Source: Candidatus Multivoradales bacterium (GTDB taxonomy: Bacteria > Acidobacteriota > Thermoanaerobaculia > Multivoradales > J023). Taken from it: 64,000 nucleotides of DNA. The notes beneath the pieces were generated by a model. It was given only the letters and a program-made list of their open reading frames with translations, had not been told where the DNA came from and ran no database searches. This document shows positions 1 through 10,662 of this stretch, piece after piece (position 1 is the first letter of the stretch; every line of letters begins with the position of its first letter). Location of the stretch: positions 3,840,001 to 3,904,000 of the forward strand of contig CBDFLE010000006.1 in assembly GCA_965248925.1 (NCBI GenBank), given 5' to 3'. The position numbers were made by a program, and so were the translations under genes.

Positions 1-698
1 GTGGCCCTTTTCTTGGCGCCTTCTTCGCGTTCTTGTTTTTGCGGTTTGCGGATGCAGCGACTCGGCTCTACGACCGGCAGGCTAAGGATCATAGCGCCTT
101 GGTGAGGATGGAGCATGGGCTTTTCTCATCGATGAGAGTGCTTGAGGATGATTATGTGCTTGCCAAGGGCTTCGTAGACACTCTGTCAGAGCCAGTGCTC
201 GATGGATCCCCACGGATTAGCGTGAATGAGCTTGCGCCGATCCCAATCGAAGCCGAGTTGTCGCTGGATATGCTCAACGTGGACTTCATCTCGGACCTTC
301 TCCGTTACAACTCTCAGGTCCGGCAACTGAACGACAGCATGGGAATAGTCTCCCGAATGTACTCTGGAGCACTGAAGTCTCTGAACACTGGCCAAATCGA
401 CTTGCAACAATACAAAGCGAATGCGTTGCTTGCTAGAGAGACCATGTGTCAGATTCAGACGAGGATCGGTCAAGTCACAAAGATGACCGTTGAGATGATC
501 GCGCGCGCCAAGTTGTTGGGGCAAACCAGGAAGCCACTCTTGGCGTGGCTACTCCACAGGCTAGCGCCAACGAGCTATCCGAAGGGGTTCGAAGGTAAGG
601 TGGCACTCGAGCTCAGCAGCATGCGGAAGAAGAAGCCAAGTGATAGCGACGGTGATGCTAGCAGACACCTCGTTCACGAAGCGGAATCGATAAAATGA
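1..698 (+). CDS. hypothetical protein, 5'-partial, with N-terminal hydrophobic segment
   Basis: Frame is open to the window edge (GPFLGAFFAFLFLRFA...). No family recognised. Followed by a degenerate attC-like sequence. Confidence 0.6.
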   Translation, partial: GPFLGAFFAFLFLRFADAATRLYDRQAKDHSALVRMEHGLFSSMRVLEDDYVLAKGFVDTLSEPVLDGSPRISVNELAPIPIEAELSLDMLNVDFISDLLRYNSQVRQLNDSMGIVSRMYSGALKSLNTGQIDLQQYKANALLARETMCQIQTRIGQVTKMTVEMIARAKLLGQTRKPLLAWLLHRLAPTSYPKGFEGKVALELSSMRKKKPSDSDGDASRHLVHEAESIK

Positions 699-699
699 C

Positions 700-781
700 G
701 CATTACCAGGCGACTTCGCACGGGCGCCGGAGTTCGGATTCTGCCGCGACTTCCGTGGCGGTGAGCCGCGCTCCGTTGTGC
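700..781 (+). other. degenerate attC-like site
   Basis: GCATTAC (700-706) ... GGTGAGC-N8-GTTGTGC (775-781) directly after the stop codon. The R'' and L'' boxes match only partially. Confidence 0.3.
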
Positions 782-966
782 GACAAGAAGTCGCTTCGTA
801 TAGGTGTCTTCCGTTGTGCGGCCGCGATTTTACATTTTCCTCGAGATTGAGATGACTTCAACCGAGACTTCCAGCTCCCTCAGAGTGCTCCTTCTTTTTG
901 GAGCTCTTGCCACATCTCTGCACTCTGCTGCCCAAGCCGGCTGCGAGGCGATCTCAGGGAATCTTG

Positions 967-999
967 TCCCAGGGTCAGGGCGCCACCCTCTCCGAACTC
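967..999 (+). repeat. junction motif M, copy 1
   Basis: TCCCAGGGTCAGGGCGCCACCCTCTCCGAACTC. 24/33 identical to 1751-1783; its last 25 nt are 21/25 identical to 6016-6040. Confidence 0.6.
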
Positions 1000-1052
1000 C
1001 GCGCCGCCGTTGAATTCAAGCTGTTCTACGCAAGACCGATGAAGGGGCTTGC

Positions 1053-1085
1053 CTGTTTGCCCGGTTACCGGGCAAACAGTATAGT
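1053..1085 (+). promoter_or_regulatory. higBA promoter with palindromic operator
   Basis: CTGTTTGCCCGGT-T-ACCGGGCAAACAG (13-bp arms) overlaps TTGCCC-N17-TATAGT. Confidence 0.7.
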
Positions 1086-1105
1086 GGCGATGAGGTGGAA
1101 CGGCA

Positions 1106-1402
1106 GTGATCGTCTCGTTTGGCGACAAGGGAACAGAAGACCAGTTTCACAACCGCGCTACGCGGCGGGCGAGGCGGTACCCGCAAGACATTCTTCGCTC
1201 TGCAACGCAGAAGCTCGACATGGTCAACGCCGCGCGGCAGCTCAGAGATCTGAGATCTCCGCCTGGCAACCGCCTCGAGCTTCACAAGGGCGACTTGAAG
1301 GAGTATCACAGCATCCGCATCAACAGCCAATGGAGGATCATCTTTCGGTGGGATTCGTCCGACGCGCTTTCGGTGCAGGTCGGGGACTACCACCGCGGAT
1401 GA
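1106..1402 (+). CDS. higB: HigB / RelE-ParE family toxin (plasmid maintenance killer type)
   Basis: 98 aa with LRSPPGNRLE.LKGD, HSIRINSQWRIIFRW. Toxin-first order with an HTH antitoxin. Confidence 0.92.
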   Translation: MIVSFGDKGTEDQFHNRATRRARRYPQDILRSATQKLDMVNAARQLRDLRSPPGNRLELHKGDLKEYHSIRINSQWRIIFRWDSSDALSVQVGDYHRG

Positions 1403-1414
1403 AAGGAGTGAGTC

Positions 1415-1702
1415 GTGCTACCAGAGAACCGTATTCCAACCCATCCAGGTGAGATTCTGCAAGGGCAGTTTCTGGAGCCGATGGGGTTGACGCAGGTTGG
1501 TCTTGCCGAAAATCTTGGCGTTCCCGTTCAGCGAATCAACGAGGTCGTGCGAGGGAAGCGAGGTGTGACCCCCAAGACGGCCTGGCTGCTTGCTCAGGCG
1601 TTCGATACGACTCCTGAGTTTTGGCTGAATCTGCAGACGAATCATGACCTGTCGCTCAATCGGCCAGGAAAAGCCGTGCCGCCATTGCGCAGAGCGGGTT
1701 GA
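1415..1702 (+). CDS. higA: HigA addiction-module antitoxin (XRE HTH)
   Basis: PTHPGEIL...FLEPMGLTQ...RINEVVRGKRGVT...TTPEFWLNLQ. Confidence 0.93.
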   Translation: MLPENRIPTHPGEILQGQFLEPMGLTQVGLAENLGVPVQRINEVVRGKRGVTPKTAWLLAQAFDTTPEFWLNLQTNHDLSLNRPGKAVPPLRRAG

Positions 1703-1724
1703 TGCGGGAAAGCAGATCTGATCA

Positions 1725-1753
1725 GGTTGGGTCGATGAGTTGAGGGGATTTCC
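1725..1753 (+). repeat. 29-bp direct repeat D, copy 1
   Basis: GGTTGGGTCGATGAGTTGAGGGGATTTCC, identical to 6769-6797. Confidence 0.9.
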
Positions 1754-1783
1754 TAGGGCTAGGGTGCCACCCAAGTCGTACTC
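1751..1783 (+). repeat. junction motif M, copy 2 (abuts repeat D)
   Basis: TCCTAGGGCTAGGGTGCCACCCAAGTCGTACTC. Confidence 0.55.
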
Positions 1784-2403
1784 ACCTGTTTTCAACACCT
1801 TACGCCACACACGGGAGATTGCGATTCCAAGCCGCCCCGCAATCCATCAACTTTTCTCCCAAGACTGACAAGATCGGAGACCCTTTTCTCGTCCCTAGGT
1901 GCATGACAAGGCCATTACGACACGTACGCCCGGGCGGCGCCATGTTCGAGATCACAACCCGCTGCATGCTGAGCCGATTCCTGTTTCCTGCGGGTCAGCA
2001 CTTCCGCAGCATTGCGGTCGGCATCTTCGCCCGAGGCCAATCGCCGTGGCAAGGAGGTCGCCTCCGAGACCTTCACCGAACGCCACACCCTGCGGCTGGA
2101 TCCGCTGCTCTGCTGGCGGCATTTTCCGTCTGAGGAGATTCGACGGCGAAGCACCGAGATGGTCGAGAAGATCGACGCTGAGAGCGCCCGGAGGGTGGTG
2201 CTCAACGGCGCTGTACCTTTGGATTCGGCGGCGATCTGCCAGCAACACCTTCATGAGCGCCCGACTCGCAGCAAGAGGTCTCCGGCGCTGGCCATGCACG
2301 CAGCGTCGAAAGTGGTGAGGAGGCAGCTGAAGGAGGCCTACCGCCTCTTCGTCGAAGCCTATCCGGAATGTGTCAATGAAAGTGAGACACTTTCTTCTGG
2401 GAA

Positions 2404-3525
2404 TTAGTACGGAATCGGTAGTGGCTCCGGCACCATCGCTTTCAGCGAGGGCGCGCAGCCAGGGGTCTCGCCTGGTGCGTCGTTGTGTACGCGGTGTGTC
2501 ACTACGTTCTCGGTATCGACTGGGTCAGTGCTGGCGGCGGTGGTCGGCGGGTTGATCCAGACCTTGTCACTGGGCTCCGGCAAAGCCGGCGCTCGCCGCT
2601 TGAAGCGGCTTGGATGAGCGGCTGAGGCGGCGGCGAGGACTTCTCGACGTTGCTCCAGTACTGAGGCCGTGAGGCCGTAGTGGACGGTCTCTGGCGTCAA
2701 CAAGCCGAGTCCTGTGTGGTAGTGCTGCGTGTTGTACCAGCCGATGAACGAGCGGCAGAATGCTCGTGCATCTTCCAGTGATCCGAAGCGGTCGGGAAAG
2801 CTCGGATGGTACTTGAGCGTCTTGAACTGGGCCTCAGAGAACGGATTGTCGTTGCTCGTGTAGGGCCGGTTCAGCGACCGTGTCATCCCGAGATCGGCCA
2901 GCAGTAGAGCCACTGGCTTGGATGTCATGCTCGAACCGCGGTCCGAGTGCAAGGTAAGTCGATCTCGCTCAACACCTTGCTTCTCAACACTGTCGGCGAT
3001 CAACCGCTTCGCGAGCCCTCCGGACTCGCGGCAGGCGAGCATCCAGCCGACGATGTAGCGGCTGAAGACGTCCAGAATTACGTAAAGGTAGTAGTGGGTC
3101 CACTTCACCGGGCCCTTGAGCTTGGTGATGTCCCACGACCACACCTCGTTCGGCCCTGTGGCCAGCAGTTCGGGCTTGGTGTAGTTGGGATGACGCCGCT
3201 GACGGCGTCGCTCGCGCAGCTCGCCCTCAGACTCCAGGACCCGGTACATGGTGCGCACCGAGCAGATATGGCGCTGATCCTCGTCCAGCAGCGCCGCCCA
3301 GACTTGACGCGGCGAGCGGTCGACGAAGCGCTCCGAGTGCAACACATCGAGGACCTCCTGGCGTTCAGCGGGCGTCAATGCCAGCGGCGGTCGAGGCCGC
3401 GTTGATAGCTGCGGCCCTGCGCTCTGCTGCCGACGGCGGCGATAGAAAGTGGCTCTGGGGACCGCCAAGGCGACGCAGGCTGCTTGCACCCCCACCGTCT
3501 CGGCCAGCGGCGCCACAGCGCTCAT
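2404..3525 (-). CDS. IS3 transposase OrfB (rve/DDE integrase core)
   Basis: PNEVWSWDITKL, LHSDRGSSM, DNPFSEAQFKTLK. Confidence 0.93.
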   Translation of the reverse strand: MSAVAPLAETVGVQAACVALAVPRATFYRRRRQQSAGPQLSTRPRPPLALTPAERQEVLDVLHSERFVDRSPRQVWAALLDEDQRHICSVRTMYRVLESEGELRERRRQRRHPNYTKPELLATGPNEVWSWDITKLKGPVKWTHYYLYVILDVFSRYIVGWMLACRESGGLAKRLIADSVEKQGVERDRLTLHSDRGSSMTSKPVALLLADLGMTRSLNRPYTSNDNPFSEAQFKTLKYHPSFPDRFGSLEDARAFCRSFIGWYNTQHYHTGLGLLTPETVHYGLTASVLEQRREVLAAASAAHPSRFKRRAPALPEPSDKVWINPPTTAASTDPVDTENVVTHRVHNDAPGETPGCAPSLKAMVPEPLPIPY

Positions 3526-3936
3526 GGCTGGCTCTCGCTCGGCTCGATCCCTAGCAGCCGGGAAAGTTTTTTTTGGACATCGATGATCGTCTCGGCTTTG
3601 TACAGCTGATGCTTGAGCCGGGCATTCTCACGCTCAAGCTCCGCGACGCGGCGGGCCTCGGCAGAGACCGGTCGACGCTTGCGACCGCGCTTCTTCGACA
3701 GACCGGCCAGAGCTCCCGTGTCGCGCTGACGGCGCCACGTCGACAGTAGCGAGGAATACAGACCCTCCTGGCGAAGCAGGGCGCCAATCTCGCCGGGCTT
3801 GCTACAGGCGTCGGCGGCCTGGACGATGCGCAGCTTGTACGACGCGCTGTACCGCCGCCGCTTCGCCTTCTCAGCTACCTCGGGATCTGGTCGGTCAGCA
3901 CCCATATCTCGCAGCTCGTGGCTTGGACTCGCCATG
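3522..3936 (-). CDS. IS3 transposase OrfA (HTH)
   Basis: KRRRYSASYKLRIV...LRQEGLYSS...IDVQKKLS. A8 tract near the 3' end, ATGA overlap with orfB. Start uncertain. Confidence 0.85.
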
Positions 3937-4112
3937 GTGATTGCTCTCCACACCCTCACTAATTTCTCGGTACTTGAGTGTCTCACTTACATTGGCACAG
4001 AGGGATCGTGCAGCGGTGGCCCGCCTGCGATCGGGCGAGTACCCGGTGGAATTCCCTTCCGGCTGCTTTCCGCCCCCGCTTCCCTGTGTATCGAGCAATG
4101 CTGGGCGGCCCT

Positions 4113-4140
4113 GTAGCCGCGCGGGGCCAGCCCGCGCGGC
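4113..4140 (+). repeat. GTAG-type REP-like palindrome
   Basis: GTA-GCCGCGCGGG-GCCAG-CCCGCGCGGC (10-bp arms, opening with GTAG) at the 3' end of the RAYT remnant. Single copy in the window. Confidence 0.4.
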
Positions 4141-4314
4141 GGGATAGACCTCGTCGTCGCCAGCGTCACCGCCACCTAGAAGGCTCGCAAGTGATTGTAT
4201 TCGAATGCCTCTGTGGAGCTATGGGGGAGGTGTGTCGAGTCGATTCCGGATGATCTTTCGTCTCTATCAAAGGGTATTTCGGCAGGCTAACGATCACGGG
4301 CCTTCAACAGAAGA

Positions 4315-4330
4315 GCCTGATCAGGGCGCC
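4315..4330 (+). repeat. junction motif M, partial copy
   Basis: GCCTGATCAGGGCGCC: 14/16 to 6010-6025; its last 10 nt are identical to 975-984. Confidence 0.4.
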
Positions 4331-4450
4331 TGCGGCCAGGAGCGCAGGTCACTCAGAGCTAGAAGACGGCAATCTCAGCGGATTCTGCCGAGATGGGTGG
4401 CCCGCTTCTGGCGGGCGACAGGTTCAGTTAATAGATGATAGCATCTTGGT

Positions 4451-4930
4451 ATGAAGCGCCGCGCATACATAGAGACTTCCTTGGTGAGCTACCTCGTTGC
4501 TCGGCCTAGCCGGGATGTCGTTGCTGCTGCTCATCAGCAGGTTTCGCTCGATTGGTGGGAGCATCGCCGCACGGACTTCGAGCTTTGCACTTCCCAACTC
4601 GTCCTCGATGAGGCGCGTCGCGGTGATCCGGACCTGGCGCAGCGCAGGATTGGAGCCCTTGACGGAATCCCTTTCCTGGAATTGACCAACACGGCCCGGA
4701 AGTTCGCTGTGTCCATTGTCGAGGAAGGTCTTCTTCACCAGGCGGCCTTTCCTGATGCGCTACACATCGCGATCGCGACAGTGCATCAAGTTGACTATCT
4801 TCTTACCTGGAACTGCTCCCACATCAACAATGCTGAGATCTTGCCGCGCATTGCGCTGATCTGCGAGCGTCTTGGCCTACTCTTACCGTATGTTTGCACT
4901 CCTGAAGAACTCCTTGGAGAGCCCCAATGA
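4451..4930 (+). CDS. PIN-domain (VapC-like) protein
   Basis: AYIETSLVSYLVARPSRD...SQLVLDEA...DALHIAIA...YLLTWNCSHI. Confidence 0.88.
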   Translation: MKRRAYIETSLVSYLVARPSRDVVAAAHQQVSLDWWEHRRTDFELCTSQLVLDEARRGDPDLAQRRIGALDGIPFLELTNTARKFAVSIVEEGLLHQAAFPDALHIAIATVHQVDYLLTWNCSHINNAEILPRIALICERLGLLLPYVCTPEELLGEPQ

Positions 4931-5118
4931 GCACAGATCCAGTTGTCGAAGAGCTACATCGCCAACGCGCGGAAGAAATGAAGCGCTTCAACTTTGACTT
5001 CGATGCGTACTATCGACACCTCAAAGAGCAGGAAAGTCTCGCGGTGAAGCTTCTGCCGGCCGCAGCTACATCGACGCGGAACCCTTCGGTGCAGCGGACT
5101 CGCGTTGCTCGCTGCTGA
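4927..5118 (+). CDS. small partner protein (putative antitoxin) of the PIN protein
   Basis: ATGA overlap; DPVVEELHRQRAEEMKRFNFDFDA. The C-terminus reads into the attC. Confidence 0.7.
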   Translation: MSTDPVVEELHRQRAEEMKRFNFDFDAYYRHLKEQESLAVKLLPAAATSTRNPSVQRTRVARC

Positions 5119-5134
5119 CCGTTGGCCGTTAGTC
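5076..5134 (+). other. integron attC site (59 bp)
   Basis: R'' GCGGAAC, 5-nt spacer, L'' GGT(G)CAGC with an extrahelical G, L' GCTGACC, 7-nt spacer, R' GTTAGTC. Confidence 0.7.
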
Positions 5135-5196
5135 ACAAAGAGAAGATGGAGAAGCGCCAGAATCGTCGATGCGATCAGCAACACAAGGAGAATCCC

Positions 5197-5406
5197 ATGA
5201 ACCACGAGCACCCTTTACTAGAGCGCGCACAGAGGTACGTCCGTCAAGAAGTCGACTTAGAACCAGCCGGATGTCTTTATGACGAGGCAATTGGAGCTTG
5301 GCGGTTAGTCGAAACCGGAGAGCTTTGGGTTGAAACGCCCGGGCGCGTGGGACCCAGGACGAAGAAGGCGGATATCGAAACGGGCGAGGACCAGAAAGGT
5401 GAGTAA
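5197..5406 (+). CDS. putative ATP-grasp-modified RiPP (graspetide-type) precursor
   Basis: AAGGAG RBS; 69 aa ending TKKADIETGEDQKGE (Thr/Lys donors, Asp/Glu acceptors); 6 bp from the ATP-grasp gene. Confidence 0.7.
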   Translation: MNHEHPLLERAQRYVRQEVDLEPAGCLYDEAIGAWRLVETGELWVETPGRVGPRTKKADIETGEDQKGE

Positions 5407-5412
5407 CCAACC

Positions 5413-6015
5413 ATGGACGCCATACCTGGAAGTCACAAGCCGCAGGTTCTTATCCTTGCGAGTCGGTACGACCTTACCTGCGACTTCGTCGTGGCTCAAC
5501 TCAGGACCAGGTCAGTTCCTTATCTGCGCCTGAATACAGAGGATCTCAGCGATTCGATTGTCTGTCTGGACCCCGTTGGACGGCACCTTGTGATCAAACA
5601 GAGCGGGGGGAGCTACTACATTACGCCGGACCATCTTCGCTCGGTGTTCTTCAGGCGTCCCGTCTTCCTTCGAGACTATGGTGACGACCATCGATCGCCC
5701 GAAGATCGCTTTTCGCGCCTCCATTGGATGGCGTTTGTTCGGAACCTGATGCTGTTCGAGGAAGCGTGCTGGATTAACAACCCCGCGACCACATACAAAG
5801 CGGAACACAAGGCCGTTCAGCTTTCCCTAGCAGCTACATTAGGCTTCGCTGTTCCAGAAACGCGGGTGACGAATGCACCATCCCCACAGTCGCTGGGCGC
5901 TCTGTCGGGGCAAGTGGCTATCAAAGGCCTCGATACGGTCCTGCTTCGGGATCAGGGTCATGAGATGTTTGGATTCACGACTTTCGAGTGTCGCGAAGCA
6001 CTGAGGCCCGCCTGA
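5413..6015 (+). pseudogene. MvdC/MvdD-like ATP-grasp ligase, C-terminally truncated
   Basis: VLILASRYDLTCDFVV...YLRLNTED...SVFFRRP...WINNP...AEHKAVQL..A..LGFAVPETRVTN. Stops at 200 aa, before the FQE/ELR/FLE-N-GEW ATP-grasp core, at junction motif M. Confidence 0.75.
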
Positions 6016-6040
6016 TCAGAGTGCCACCCTCCCCGTACTC
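6010..6040 (+). repeat. junction motif M, copy 3
   Basis: GCCTGATCAGAGTGCCACCCTCCCCGTACTC. Confidence 0.6.
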
Positions 6041-6114
6041 TATTGCTCTCAATAGCTTACGCGTGGAGTCAAGGAAAAGCCCTAACCCTCTGGGCCTGGT
6101 CCAGGAGGAGGTTC

Positions 6115-6525
6115 TCAGCCGTCTTGAGCGCCGAAGAGGGCCAGCTCGATAGCGTTGGTGAAGGTGGTGAAGTTCTGGTCGGTGGTGAAGATCGAGTACC
6201 TTCGACGCCGGCTCACCGCGCAAATCAGGAAGTCGGTGTTGGACCCTTGGATGCTCCGAGACCGGCAGCGGTTGAAGCAGCGGGAGGCTTCTTCGTAGTC
6301 TTCGGTCTGTAGCTCGATGTCGGGGAAGGCTCGCAGCTTTGCTCGCAGCATCTCGAATTGTTCGTCGTGCTGGATGCCTGCGAGGAGTTCTTGGCGCACG
6401 GCACCGAGCATTTGCGCTCGGCCTTCGCGAATCAATTCGGTGAGCTGTCGCCGCTCGGGTGAGTTCTCAGCTCTTGAACGCCGAAATGACAGCGACCAGA
6501 TGGAGGTGTCGATCAATACCTTCAC
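6115..6525 (-). CDS. vapC: VapC PIN-domain toxin
   Basis: VLIDTSIWS...VRQELLAG...TDFLICA...IFTTDQNF. Confidence 0.92.
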   Translation of the reverse strand: MKVLIDTSIWSLSFRRSRAENSPERRQLTELIREGRAQMLGAVRQELLAGIQHDEQFEMLRAKLRAFPDIELQTEDYEEASRCFNRCRSRSIQGSNTDFLICAVSRRRRYSIFTTDQNFTTFTNAIELALFGAQDG

Positions 6526-6722
6526 TGCCGCTGCCGCTGCTTCTTGTAGTCGTAGTCGGGGTCTAAGTCGAGGGTTCCGAAGAGTTCTATGACTTGGAGC
6601 TGGCGGCGGTGCTGAACGTACTCTTCAAGAGCTTCGGTGACGGTCGCCTTCTTGGTTCGGTGACCACCGATCTCAAGGGCCTGTTGCAAGAGGCGTTCGT
6701 CGATTGCGAGGTTGGTTGCCAT
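6522..6722 (-). CDS. vapB: VapB-family antitoxin
   Basis: MATNLAIDERLLQQAL...TKKATVTEALEEYV; overlaps the vapC start. Confidence 0.9.
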   Translation of the reverse strand: MATNLAIDERLLQQALEIGGHRTKKATVTEALEEYVQHRRQLQVIELFGTLDLDPDYDYKKQRQRQ

Positions 6723-6739
6723 GTGTGAAGTCTTACACA
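6722..6739 (-). promoter_or_regulatory. vapBC operator-like palindrome
   Basis: TGTGTGAAGTCTTACACA, an imperfect palindrome adjoining the start codon. Confidence 0.5.
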
Positions 6740-6768
6740 GACGGAGCTACCAGGCAAGATCTCTTGTC

Positions 6769-6797
6769 GGTTGGGTCGATGAGTTGAGGGGATTTCC
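6769..6797 (+). repeat. 29-bp direct repeat D, copy 2
   Basis: Identical to 1725-1753; lies just upstream of acs. Confidence 0.9.
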
Positions 6798-6820
6798 GGC
6801 TAGAATCCCCTTTCCAGATC

Positions 6821-8776
6821 TTGAACCGGCCGGAGGACCTGATTGTGATTGCCGTCAAGCCCGATATTTCGTTGCGTGCTCATGTTCCTTCGATGGACGA
6901 CTATCAGCGCCTGTACCAGGCATCGCTGGAGGATCCGCAGGCGTTTTGGCTGGATCAGGCGGAGCGGCTGAGCTGGTTTCAGCCGCCGTCGGAGGCTGGG
7001 GATTGCGATTTCAATAGCGTCGATATCTCCTGGTTTGCCGGTGGTCAGCTCAACGCTTGCTACAACTGTGTTGATCGCCACGCGCAGAGTCAGCCGGAGC
7101 GGACGGCGATCATCTGGGCCGCCGATGAGCCGGGTGAGTACACCCACATCAGCTATCGCCAGCTGCAACGCGAGGTCTCGCGAGTCGCTAATGTGCTGCT
7201 GGCCCACGGCGTTGGGCGCGGCGATCGGGTGTGCATCTACTTGCCGATGATCCCCGAACTGGCCTACACCATGCTGGCTTGCGCGCGCATTGGCGCGGTG
7301 CATTCAATCGTCTTTGCCGGCTTCTCGGCGGCGGCGCTGCGCGACCGTATCGTCGATGCCCACTGCAAGATCGTGGTGACCGCCAATCAGGGCCTGCGGG
7401 GTGGCAAGAGGATCCCGCTCAAGGAGACCACTGATGAGGCGGTCGAGGGGCTCGACTTTGTCGACAGCGTGCTGGTGGCTCGTCGCACCGACCATGATTC
7501 GGCGATGCGCGCCGGCCGCGACTACTGGCTTGACCAGGAAGCCGCCAAGCAGCGCGCGGTCTGCCCCGCCGAGTGGATGGATGCGGAGTCGCCGCTGTTC
7601 ATCCTCTACACCTCGGGCTCGACCGGTCAACCCAAGGGAGTACTGCACACCACCGGTGGCTACTTAGTCTACGCCTCTCTAACCCACCAGATCGTCTTCG
7701 ATATTCATGATGACGATGTCTATGCCTGTGTCGCGGATATCGGTTGGGTTACCGGCCACAGCTACATCATCTATGGGCCGCTGGCCAACGGCGCGACGAC
7801 GGTGATGTTCGAATCAGTGCCGACCTATCCCGACGCCGGCCGCTACTGGCAGCTGGTCGACGATCTCGGCATCACCGTGCTCTACACCGCGCCGACCGCC
7901 ATTCGCGCCATTGCCCGGGAGGGCGACGAATGGGTCAAGAAGTACAGCCGCAAGAGCTTGCGGGTGCTCGGCACGGTGGGCGAGCCGATCAATCCGGAGG
8001 TTTGGCAGTGGTACTACGAGGTGGTGGGCGAGGGCCGCTGCGCGATCGTCGATACTTGGTGGCAGACTGAAACCGGCGGCATTCTAATCACCCCGCTGCC
8101 GGGTGCGATCCCTACCAAGCCGGGTTCTGCGACCCTACCCTTCTTTGGTGTGGAGCCCTGCCTGGTGGATGAGGAGGGCCAGGAGATCGAGGGCAACGAG
8201 GTGCGCGGCAACCTGTGTCTGAAACGTTCTTGGCCAGGCCAGGCGCGGACTATCTACGGTGATCATAGTCGTTTCAAAGAGACCTACTTCAGCCAGTATC
8301 CGGGCCTCTACTTCACCGGCGATGGCTGCCGCCGCGACGAGGATGGCTATTATTGGATCACTGGCCGGGTGGATGATGTGCTCAATGTCTCCGGCCATCG
8401 GCTCGGCACCGCGGAGGTCGAGAGCGCGCTGGTGGCCCACGAAGCGGTCGCCGAGGCAGCAGTGGTGGGTTGCCCGCACGACATCAAGGGCACTGGCATC
8501 TTCGCCTATGTGCTGATCAACCCGGCTTTCGAGTCGACCCCGGTCGACGAGCTGGAGGCTATCCTGCGAGCCCAGGTGGCCAAAGTTATCGGGCCGATCG
8601 CCAAACCCGACCACATTCAGATCGCCCCCGGCCTGCCCAAGACCCGCTCGGGCAAGATCATGCGTCGCATTCTACGCAACATCGCCGCTGGCGCGTACGA
8701 CGATATGGGCGATATCTCGACCCTGGCCGATCCGGGGGTCGTCAAGCAGTTGATCGAGGCGCATCAACAAGGCTAG
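6821..8776 (+). CDS. acs: acetyl-CoA synthetase
   Basis: [63 protein letters not shown]. Confidence 0.97.
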
Positions 8777-8781
8777 AAGGG

Positions 8782-10662
8782 ATGGCGGAATCCCAGGGGG
8801 TAGGTCAGCCTATTCGATTGAACTCGTCCTCGCCGCCGCGTACTTCGGGATGGTTGGCGGCCAGCTGTCTCTTACTGGTCGCGGTGACCGCCGTGGCTTG
8901 GATCCTGGCCGCGGGGTTGGTGGCGGCCAACGATTTGCCTTGGGGCGAGCGTTGTTGGCTGGGTCTGCTGTGTTTCGTGACCCTGGCTCTGGGGGCTGGC
9001 GGTTTGCTGGCCTTGGCGGCCCTCAGTCACTGGTTGTGGAGTCGTTTTACGCCACCACGCTGCCAGCGTCCGCCCCCCTGGGTGCAGGTGGCCGCTGTTC
9101 TGGCCGCAGTCATGGTGCCAGCGATCGTCGGTTGGGGGACTGGCGGAGCGCTACCGTTCGCTCTGCTCGTTGCTCTGGCTGGGCTCGCTTGGCTCTGCTG
9201 TGGTGCCTTGCTGCGCCGAGCACGACTTCTCGATTGGCGGCCTCTGGTGGCTGTGACGGTGAGCCTGATGGTGCTCTGGGGAGTGGTGGCTCGGGTTTCC
9301 AGTAGCAGCGCCGAGGCTCGGCGCCAGGGTGAAGAGGAACTCTTCCACCAGGTCACGGCAGGTTTGCGAGTCAACGGCCAGCGGCTGCTGGTGATTGGTC
9401 TCGATGGTTTCTCCTGGCAGTTTTTCTCGGCGATGAGGCAGCGTGGTGAGTTGCCAAACTTGAGCCGCCTTGCCGGCTTGGGTGTGGCCGGTCCCTTGGG
9501 CTCGCTGCGGCCCACCGAATCGGCACGCCTGTGGACCACGGTGGCGAGCGGTGAAACGGCTGAGCGGCACGGTGTAGCGAGTTTCTTTTCCTATGTCTTG
9601 CCGGGTATCGGGAAGCCGCTGATCGCCCGCTGGCCGAACGGCAGCGGGCTGCCGCGTCTGCTCGATCTGGCGGTAAGTCGTGGTTGGGCGCGGCGCGAAC
9701 CGGTGTCTTCTTACAACTGCAGCTCGCCGCGATTCTGGGAGATCGTCGAGGCCGCTGGCGGGCGCGCCGCGGTCCTAGGTTGGTGGGCGACTTGGCCGGC
9801 CCACGCCGCCCGCGGGGTGGTGGTGAGCGATACCTTCTACTACCACTATGGTGGCCGCGACAAGCCGCCGCGGCTGGGCTTAGAGGGTGCGGGCGGGGCG
9901 GTCTATCCGTCAACTTTGAAGGTCGAGTTGGAAGGGTTGCGGCGCTCGCCGCACTCGGTTGGCGAGGCAGAGATTGAGCGTTTCTTCGCTCGCCCAATGG
10001 AGCGCCTCGAAGAGCTGCGCAACAGCAGTTGGCTGCCGACCGTGGACGACCAGTTCCTCTATCTTTTCTCGATGGACCGCACCTATGCCGACCTGGCCCA
10101 GCACCTGTTGCGGCGGCAGCCGGATCTCGACCTGATGGTGGTGTATCTGCGGGGTGTCGACACCCTGTCTCACCTGGCGCTCGAATTCGGCACCCCTCTC
10201 GATCCTGCGTCGCCGGGTTCGGCGGCCGACTTGGTGCGTGCCTACTACGTTTTCACCGATCAGTTGGTGGGAGAGTTGGTTGCGGCGGCAGGGGCGGGGC
10301 GTGGTGTCTTGGTGCTCTCTGACCACGGCTTTGCTCGCGACGATGTGGGCCGCTGGGGTCACGACGACGCGCCGCCAGGAGTGTTACTGGCGGCCGGTTC
10401 CGGCTTGGCCAGCGGGCGGCGCATCACCGAAGTGGATCTCTACGACATCTTCCCGACCGTCTTGCGCTTCTTCGGCTTACCACGGGTGGCGGGGCAGTCC
10501 GGCGAATCTTTGGCCATCTACGGCGCCGAGCTGGCCAGCCCGCCGCCGCCGCTGCCGAGCTATGGCCGCCCACCCCGCGCCGCGCCGGCGGACCTGGCGG
10601 TCGGTGAGAAGGCCAGGGAGGAAGAAGTCGAGCGGCTTCGATCCCTCGGCTACGGCGGCTAG
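8782..10662 (+). CDS. membrane-anchored alkaline phosphatase/phosphodiesterase (sulfatase-superfamily) protein
   Basis: About 5 N-terminal TM segments; LLVIGLDG, WTTVASG, GVDTLSH, VLSDHGF, C-terminal ERLRSLGY. Start moved to ATG 8782 (after the acs stop). Confidence 0.85.
   Translation: MAESQGVGQPIRLNSSSPPRTSGWLAASCLLLVAVTAVAWILAAGLVAANDLPWGERCWLGLLCFVTLALGAGGLLALAALSHWLWSRFTPPRCQRPPPWVQVAAVLAAVMVPAIVGWGTGGALPFALLVALAGLAWLCCGALLRRARLLDWRPLVAVTVSLMVLWGVVARVSSSSAEARRQGEEELFHQVTAGLRVNGQRLLVIGLDGFSWQFFSAMRQRGELPNLSRLAGLGVAGPLGSLRPTESARLWTTVASGETAERHGVASFFSYVLPGIGKPLIARWPNGSGLPRLLDLAVSRGWARREPVSSYNCSSPRFWEIVEAAGGRAAVLGWWATWPAHAARGVVVSDTFYYHYGGRDKPPRLGLEGAGGAVYPSTLKVELEGLRRSPHSVGEAEIERFFARPMERLEELRNSSWLPTVDDQFLYLFSMDRTYADLAQHLLRRQPDLDLMVVYLRGVDTLSHLALEFGTPLDPASPGSAADLVRAYYVFTDQLVGELVAAAGAGRGVLVLSDHGFARDDVGRWGHDDAPPGVLLAAGSGLASGRRITEVDLYDIFPTVLRFFGLPRVAGQSGESLAIYGAELASPPPPLPSYGRPPRAAPADLAVGEKAREEEVERLRSLGYGG

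Follow-up and report, generated by a model that had tools for sequence, protein, structure and literature searches.

Repetitive extragenic palindromic (REP) sequences and the REP-associated tyrosine transposases (RAYTs) are well described as joint systems in Proteobacteria. Insertion sequences (IS) of the IS200/IS605 family, such as IS608 and ISDra2, transpose via single-stranded circles, and IS608 TnpA cuts and religates single-stranded DNA at its hairpins, as does E. coli TnpA-REP. Integrons combine the tyrosine recombinase IntI, an attI site and cassettes ending in attC. REPtrons are described as RAYT/TnpA-REP genes flanked by REP sequences (PMC2817692, PMC5581495, PMC6006769); a REP is a 20–40-nt palindrome with a GTAG or CGTC tag, usually present in more than 100 copies, and the RAYT gene is typically single-copy and not itself mobile (PMC5581495, PMC2817692). 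Class 3 TnpA-Y1 proteins are placed in Acidobacteria, Planctomycetes and Proteobacteria, as intermediates between IS and REPtron, with the motifs NHVH, W[TA], YV[VI][AENY]EQ and a CnGA foot (Quentin 2018, PMC6006769). Here, we compare these systems with a locus on a 64,000-nt stretch of DNA (the window; all window coordinates are positions of this whole 64-kb stretch) from Candidatus Multivoradales bacterium (GenBank assembly GCA_965248925.1, contig CBDFLE010000006.1, positions 3,840,001 to 3,904,000), whose 7.98-Mb genome in 6 contigs is referred to as G000. Upstream of the acetyl-CoA synthetase gene acs, a short motif (M) and an exact 29-nt repeat (D) surround two toxin–antitoxin (TA) modules, and an earlier note had proposed that a D/M junction may be a recombination site that repeatedly captures such modules. 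We put the probability at roughly 60% that M serves as the left-end unit in a system of the REPtron/IS200 type and that D is a local, private duplication outside it. The locus would then represent a known kind of repeat system in variant form, and not new machinery for gene capture.

The 25-nt pattern given for M by the earlier note matched the window three times (975, 1759 and 6016), compared to 0.01 matches expected from shuffled sequence. With up to three mismatches it matched the whole G000 genome 19 times, some of these matches forming tight tandem groups. The flanks of the genome matches revealed that conservation extends past M into a unit of ~50 nt with discrete edges, which M opens and which consists, in order, of TCAG, the dyad GGGTGCCACCC, four variable bases (N4), CGTACTC, a short T-rich/A-rich hairpin and TTACGC. 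Such units were also found solo, without a Y1 gene. An nhmmer profile of ten units recovered 25 copies in G000 at E < 0.01; the copy at 975, which lay outside this profile, scored only E = 0.48 genome-wide. A covariance model built on 23 units, with the copy at 975 among the training sequences, gave 29 matches in G000 and further matches in four other genera (G005, 23; G008, 21; G010, 10; G017, 5). Five more genomes of the family had one or two matches and 14 of the 24 had none, which places M in 10/24 family genomes. When one genome per species was searched (185,579 species), the exact pattern occurred in just one other genome, an uncultured Thermoanaerobaculia metagenome-assembled genome. 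In the M hairpin, 83% of cells were paired, compared to 32–52% with the partner columns slid. The 11-mer core of M occurred 29 times in the genome versus 16 expected. A classical high-copy REP was ruled out, as core words reached at most 2–8 times their expectation, and so was a promoter or operator, as the downstream gene lies on either strand.

Short, partial re-iterations of the first bases of M often precede the unit. TCAG stands ahead of most left ends, with CTAG, ACAG and TCTG also seen. The re-iterated sequence is particular to each copy, which looks like the result of repeated cutting and rejoining at this edge. At two loci (L013:2460–2590, corresponding to C6:891960–892090 of G000, and L100:2130–2270), the left edge is stacked with truncated restarts of ~11 and ~26 nt. 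Restart sequences varied by copy (TTCAGGGTGCC, GCGGGGTGCC, GTTCTGGGTGCC and CTAGGG), and right ends showed comparable 12-nt restarts.

M was located ahead of every intact gene of one RAYT-like Y1 subfamily in G000, in line with the idea that a RAYT-type enzyme belongs to this motif. At several places the same long open reading frame (ORF) starts ~95 nt past the end of the M unit. Its 322-aa product combines an N-terminal HUH (histidine–hydrophobic–histidine)/Y1 domain with a conserved C-terminal domain of ~180 aa. The subfamily has five intact copies in G000, 77–96% mutually identical, and at least four remnants. The alignment of four intact elements starts at M, runs across the gene and reaches a shared right end ~1.37 kb away, where an inverted GGGTGGCAC core is carried (left side CAGGGTGCCACCC, right side inverted core GGGTGGCACGCTG), and the fifth has the same right end at the same distance. 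All intact elements also share a conserved 3' block ~75 nt before the right end. No flanking direct repeat of at least 11 nt was present at any of the five. The N-terminal 130 residues matched Pfam Y1_Tnp (E = 8e-8 to 4e-4), above the cut-off in 4/5 intact copies; across the genome this model had 14 matches from several subfamilies, 11 of them above the cut-off. The best NCBIfam model was REP_Tyr_transpos (E = 5e-11, model positions 9–144 of 146), at 34–43 bits versus a cut-off of 80. A profile comparison with solved structures returned E. coli TnpA-REP (4ER8) as the best, weak match (E = 0.13), and phmmer of the protein against the PDB returned no match. The HUH motif NHLH and the tyrosine motif RLRYVISHG could be read in the alignment.

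A second Y1 subfamily was represented by three near-identical copies (C6:3633281, C5:709232 and C5:1438402 of G000). All three are embedded in larger duplicated segments, each beginning within a fragment similar to a Mg-chelatase/ComM-type gene, so that the mobile unit exceeds the gene. Aligning the three copies for element borders gave no clean ends.

Each Y1 gene of the M-linked subfamily is thus bracketed by an M unit on the left and a degenerate inverted copy of the M core on the right. In the mechanism that we favour, the Y1 enzymes, by analogy with IS608 TnpA and E. coli TnpA-REP, would nick and rejoin single-stranded DNA at M edges. Such activity would explain why unrelated or truncated DNA so often adjoins M on its left side, why this edge stutters and why units pile up in the same orientation in accessory islands.

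The window carries a dead copy of this element, in which the catalytic core is gone and an IS3-family element interrupts the gene. Its left end is the M unit at 1755–1811 (plus strand, 69.5 bits with the covariance model), which aligns with the left ends of the intact elements. A tblastn search with an intact copy placed the gene remnant in two parts on the plus strand. The first (1903–2362) keeps residues 1–64 (1903–2076) and 167–276 (2033–2362) of the 322, and the last (4007–4144) keeps residues 277–322; the IS3-family element sits between residues 276 and 277. Absent are residues ~65–166 (~100 residues), including the HUH motif at 62–64 and the tyrosine near 123. The earlier note had listed a fourth, partial M at 4321, which turned out to be ten bases within the conserved 3' block of the Y1 elements (4310–4345, plus strand, from alignment with the five intact elements). 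The actual fourth site is the right end of the dead element at ~4385–4410 (plus strand), where alignment identified the inverted core GGGTGGC and the covariance model gave a weak minus-strand match (E = 0.48).

The window has two other M units. Unit B (6012–6068, plus strand, N4 = TCCC; 54.8 bits, nhmmer E = 6.6e-12), a solo unit, abuts the stop codon of a broken ATP-grasp gene, so that the gene breaks off at M(6016), as had been claimed. This gene closes the remnant of a graspetide cluster, a ribosomally synthesised and post-translationally modified peptide (RiPP) cluster of the ATP-grasp type (5122–6015, plus strand), in which a 94-aa ORF precedes the cut maturase gene. The maturase matched NCBIfam TIGR04187 (E = 6.3e-25) over model positions 2–181 of 312, and its C-terminal remainder had no match anywhere in the G000 genome. 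The 94-aa ORF is T/K/E/D-rich near its end and may encode the graspetide precursor. Unit A (971–1027, plus strand, N4 = TCTC; 34.4 bits) has a canonical first half and a divergent second half. It directly follows a stretch whose translation resembles the opening 40 codons of a gene for a secreted protein: a possible 5' fragment of a secreted/lipoprotein gene (804–974, plus strand) with a signal-peptide-like start, whose frame enters M and stops there (ORF 804–1013). M(1759) likewise stands at a junction, as the first copy of D is cut there.

D was recovered exactly at 1725–1753 (D1) and 6769–6797 (D2), as reported, with 2 matches versus 0.00 expected. GGCTAG follows both copies, in D1 after a 3-nt insertion (TAG), which gives 100% identity over 29 + 6 nt, or 35 nt with one 3-nt indel. 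Allowing up to five mismatches still left just two copies in the whole genome. Searched as exact 20-mers, D had 0 matches in collections of genome contigs and metagenome contigs, and BLAST of 91 nt containing D against the 23 other family genomes returned nothing significant (best E = 0.05). No other inspected M unit had D ahead of it, so that the D/M junction exists at the acs-upstream locus only and does not recur. D2 (6769–6811 with its flank, plus strand) is the complete version, in which AGGGGATT (6787–6794) pairs with AATCCCCT (6804–6811) as a full 8-bp palindrome. D1 (1725–1762, plus strand) is without the right palindrome arm since M starts there. Our reading is therefore that a single duplication of the sequence just upstream of acs, 29–35 nt long and private to this locus, gave rise to D, and that it lies outside the M system. 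Most likely it arose from a single event that placed the 5-kb, Y1-led block next to higBA.

Other identities for D were rejected. It does not form the right end of Y1 elements, because the intact elements end differently and without flanking repeats. As a degenerate M or a hairpin it gave no convincing alignment and unremarkable folding z-scores. We also inspected the Logan contigs of four public runs, all from one sample that is possibly the source of the assembly. D1 and D2 each lay inside a contig with unique flanks on both sides, and since these contigs are independent, the duplication is not an assembly artefact. Neither a D1-to-D2 deletion joint nor a D-to-M circle, the circular M-cargo-D junction that had been envisaged, was present in these contigs, which drop rare forms. 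The palindrome AGATCT occurs six times in the first 9 kb (among them 1714, 6757, 6817 and the 1248–1260 region), with one copy 5–6 nt ahead of each D and one just past the D2 palindrome; this may be chance.

Both TA modules are type II pairs, that is, adjacent genes of matching families (HigB-like_toxin with HTH_3, and PIN with VapB_antitoxin). The earlier note was right that their cargo is unrelated, as the higBA and vapBC units share no sequence apart from M and D. It had also pointed to an identical length of 784 bp from M to the CTAG behind D. The arithmetic is correct for that anchor, but it depends on the 3-nt insertion, and from M start to D start the units measure 750 bp (higBA) and 753 bp (vapBC). 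Homology in other genomes spans window positions 1054–1716 for higBA and 6160–6739 for vapBC. Taking these homology edges and the vapC stop codon, the cargo sits between M and D at offsets of ~79 + 663 + 46 and 99 + 625 + 64, respectively, and the non-cargo parts next to M and D differ by ~20 nt per side. Because the cargo edges lie at different offsets, the equal spacing does not represent a common frame, and the equal total is best taken as coincidence. In a class sample of 301 genomes that includes G000, higBA relatives were found in 41 (one of them, G044, flagged as unpublished) and vapBC relatives in 30, i.e. in 40 and 29 of the 300 other genomes. These relatives (65–84% nucleotide identity) stop short of both M and D; the homology of higA with a relative, for example, ends 9 nt before D1. 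This demonstrates that neither repeat travels with these TA modules elsewhere. Neither D nor the equal spacing belongs to a site; both are accidents of this locus.

Co-oriented M arrays with one or two genes between units were observed in G000 and in related genera. The clearest was a 7.3-kb contig of G005 (C345; L095, 1–7271) with four to five units (112, 1421, 2718 and 4443, all on the plus strand). The single genes that separate them are a membrane ORF and those for a PALP enzyme, a multicopper oxidase (opposite strand) and an outer-membrane beta-barrel. The PALP gene has one close ortholog in the family (76% amino acid identity, in G001), which stands in a different context, with nucleotide homology ending at the gene's own edges; the covariance model found no M in G001. 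TA modules adjoin M at four further places in G000 and adjoin the M-linked Y1 gene in G017. At three G000 loci (C5:394–396 kb, C5:2082 kb and C6:1923 kb), M or half-M pieces in direct orientation stand on both sides of TA modules. Replication-strand bias was ruled out by eye as the cause of co-orientation, as M orientation flips often along the 5.2-Mb contig.

Several individual arrangements deserve mention. At C5:394300–396200 of G000 (L016:2300–4200), a second row of M, TA, M, TA consists of a weak half M, a Gp49/HigB-like toxin with an HTH_37 antitoxin (minus strand), a full M and a Phd-PIN pair, and another higA-like match lies 2.5 kb past this row. In G008 (C72; L102:1900–2800), an inverted M pair 750 nt apart surrounds a 153-aa ORF of no known family, the sole inverted pair seen without a Y1 gene. 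In G010 (C225; L101:2100–2840), four co-oriented M-like units fall within 730 nt at a contig end, after the hsdM gene of a type I restriction-modification system and an hsdS-like short ORF.

Not all of these data sit comfortably with M as the left end of a REPtron/IS200-like element. Among pairs of adjacent M units with a spacing above 200 nt and below 10 kb, 14/16 were co-oriented, one of the two exceptions being the left and right ends of a Y1 gene. TA modules lay within 900 nt of 5/23 M loci compared to 0.49 expected, and 0/20,000 random placements reached five, although this test, based on five Pfam TA families, used uniform random placement and is blind to the clustering of accessory DNA. 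Both window TA units share D and a private M variant, whose N4 (TCTC or TCCC) was seen in no other aligned copy. Simple repeat litter alone predicts neither the co-orientation, nor the TA enrichment, nor this shared variant with D. In addition, hairpin covariation was weak (27/500 shuffles reached the observed score), the Y1 protein stays below the NCBIfam RAYT cut-off and its activity on M is a prediction. The duplication of D also lacks a mechanistic account; D is 100% identical whereas the M units of the two TA units agree at 21/25 positions, so the two repeats have different histories. Finally, same-genus relatives are lacking and intergenic DNA is unalignable at ~75% acs nucleotide identity, so that no empty site could be aligned. 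The co-orientation, the G005 array, the TA enrichment, the edge re-iterations and the N4 variant together keep alive a reading, in our judgement quite unlikely, in which M is the recombination site of a Y1-driven gene-capture system. Such a system would be an HUH analogue of integron attC arrays, with genes and TA modules inserted or exchanged between co-oriented M units, and M-higBA-D and M-vapBC-D would be cassettes in a shared frame. The bracketed TA modules and the PALP ortholog in its different context, with homology confined to the gene, count in favour of this. However, D is unique to one locus, the PALP ortholog sits in a genome without any M, the TA relatives in 40 and 29 other genomes do without M and D, and 70 of the 75 TA modules in G000 have no M nearby, against five that do. 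Gene orientation relative to M is inconsistent, no identical cassette occurs at two places, and the contigs hold no circle or joint. Where genes adjoin M on its left they are truncated, and the missing halves do not reappear on the far side of the unit, unlike in clean cassette insertion.

Entry of an island at D, by site-specific or homologous recombination, is a legitimate, if unlikely, rival. D1 and D2 would be the attL and attR of a degenerate integrated island (1763–6803; 5,044 bp from D to D) whose attB was a D-like sequence upstream of acs and whose integrase was later lost, M being incidental. An exact direct repeat does flank a lower-GC block full of mobile DNA, and a full palindrome at D2 with the left arm only at D1 is expected if the sequence to the right of the crossover differs. 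The end of higA homology before D1 also indicates that higBA did not bring D along. On the other hand, no integrase or serine recombinase family was detected among the scanned ORFs of positions 1–9000, and with D absent from every other genome and metagenome contig searched, no attB or attP can be shown. Moreover, the island's left junction falls on exactly the base where an M unit begins, which points to the Y1 system and not to an integrase. That M and D are chance similarities or assembly artefacts could be argued from the weak score of the M at 975 when it is left out of training, but this is already refuted by the match counts over shuffles, by the 25–29 copies in G000 with more in four other genera, and by the contigs spanning D1 and D2 in the four runs. 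Of these readings, a left-end unit of a REPtron/IS200-like system accounts best for M, with D as a local duplication beside it.

The region around these repeats is an island of ~7.5 kb that holds three M units, the dead Y1 gene, an IS3-family element, the broken graspetide cluster and two or three TA modules. Pfam confirmed the window genes named by the earlier note, namely higBA, vapBC (minus strand), acs and the IS3-family element. Ahead of higB lies a perfect 12-bp inverted repeat (1047–1076), read from the sequence as a likely HigA operator, and higBA homology in other genomes begins within it (~1054–1068). It is followed by higB (1106–1402; HigB-like_toxin, E = 6.6e-19) and higA (1415–1702; HTH_3, E = 5.2e-11), both on the plus strand (1106–1702). 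The IS3-family element (2363–4006, minus strand) carries orfA (3522–3986) and orfB (2404–3525), with Pfam matches to HTH_Tnp_1 and rve, between terminal inverted repeats (2369–2391 and 3977–3999). Multi-copy depth and loose contig ends at 2363 and 4004 mark its borders. It is highly multi-copy in the source sample, with a contig depth ~25–30x that of its flanks, and a second variant differs at 14 positions within 2445–2592. Beyond the right end of the dead Y1 element, a 159-aa PIN-like ORF and an overlapping 63-aa ORF (4451–5118, plus strand) form a possible third TA-like pair (Pfam PIN, E = 0.031, below the cut-off). Between M unit B and D2, vapC (6115–6525; PIN, E = 1.1e-7) and vapB (6522–6722; VapB_antitoxin, E = 5.5e-18) occupy the minus strand (6115–6722). 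Rfam over positions 1–9000 gave a single sub-threshold sRNA match and nothing at M or D.

The native gene to the right of the block is acs (6821–8776, plus strand; Pfam ACAS_N, AMP-binding and AMP-binding_C). In relatives, acs has ~75% nucleotide identity, and matches run only from the coding start onward. Upstream of the window lie genes for a DUF4212 protein and a sodium:solute symporter (SSF), an actP-like pair. This pair is directly upstream of acs on the same strand in 4/12 same-family loci, with three of the gaps between SSF and acs measuring ~20–160 nt and one 1.3 kb; for the remaining 8/12 it was not inside the stretch fetched around acs. The corresponding gap in G000 is ~7.5 kb, with a GC content of 0.53–0.60 compared to 0.62 genome-wide. 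Given also the adjacency in relatives, the DNA from the window start to D2 is accessory and occupies a variable spot. The 1.3-kb gap belongs to G019 (L032:4380–5560) and is filled by a yaaA-like gene on the opposite strand (peroxide-stress, DUF328-type by reading), which indicates that the spot varies in the family even without M.

Set against known systems, the locus resembles integrons and pdif modules, going by their general features, in its spaced, co-oriented, structured repeats with one or two genes between them and TA modules among the cargo. It differs from both in that an HUH enzyme is tied to the site, there is no attI-like platform and no cassette was seen at two places. An IntI/Xer-type tyrosine recombinase was absent from the 14 + 12 ORFs scanned in and upstream of the region. 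A literature search of limited scope returned no report of TA cargo in connection with RAYT or IS200-type elements. If true, the cassette interpretation would mean that gene capture of the integron kind has a second enzymatic basis. HUH/Y1 cassettes would then be a single-strand-DNA analogue of integron arrays, and the block upstream of acs such an array in decay. The practical result is a correction, as D and the equal spacing fall outside any shared site.

The M-linked Y1 elements share features with the IS200/IS605 family. They are multi-copy Y1 HUH elements with hairpin-capable ends, no target duplication of at least 11 nt at intact copies and a near-constant word (mostly TCAG) in the position expected of a target tetranucleotide, immediately outside the left end. 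In contrast, the Y1 protein is twice the length of IS200 TnpA, and the right end resembles the left one in degenerate and inverted form, unlike the similar hairpins in the same orientation that characterise IS200/IS605. We know of no description of solo left-end units or stuttered edges in that family. In common with class 3 TnpA-Y1 proteins, the system belongs to the phylum Acidobacteriota, has atypical flanks without GTAG, several gene copies per genome and an NH-hydrophobic-H type of HUH motif. Compared with the motifs printed there, it has NHLH, FWG and YVISHG instead, and no evident CnGA foot.

REPtrons offer the other close parallel. As in a REPtron, a Y1 HUH gene, best matched by REP_Tyr_transpos among named models, is bracketed by inverted short repeat copies, the repeat type is tied to one gene subfamily, and M also occurs scattered without a gene, for the most part in intergenic DNA. 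Strict REP/RAYT status, as judged by repeat number, the GTAG tag and a single-copy gene, does not apply here: there are five intact genes plus remnants for ~29 repeat copies, M is a ~50-nt two-part unit with neither a GTAG nor a CGTC tag, and the Y1 protein has its conserved C-terminal domain of ~180 aa. M copies also form co-oriented arrays, unlike bacterial interspersed mosaic elements (BIMEs) and REP doublets forming hairpins (REPINs), in which orientation alternates. How RAYT enzymes move repeats, and how the repeats affect neighbouring genes, is an open question in the field. For this question the Thermoanaerobaculia family offers a low-copy, readable case, with sharp unit edges and a copy-specific stutter on the left, in which M units coincide with gene truncations and line up one way around TA and accessory genes. 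These features make the nick sites and strand-transfer products of this relative of REPtrons and IS200 elements predictable and testable.

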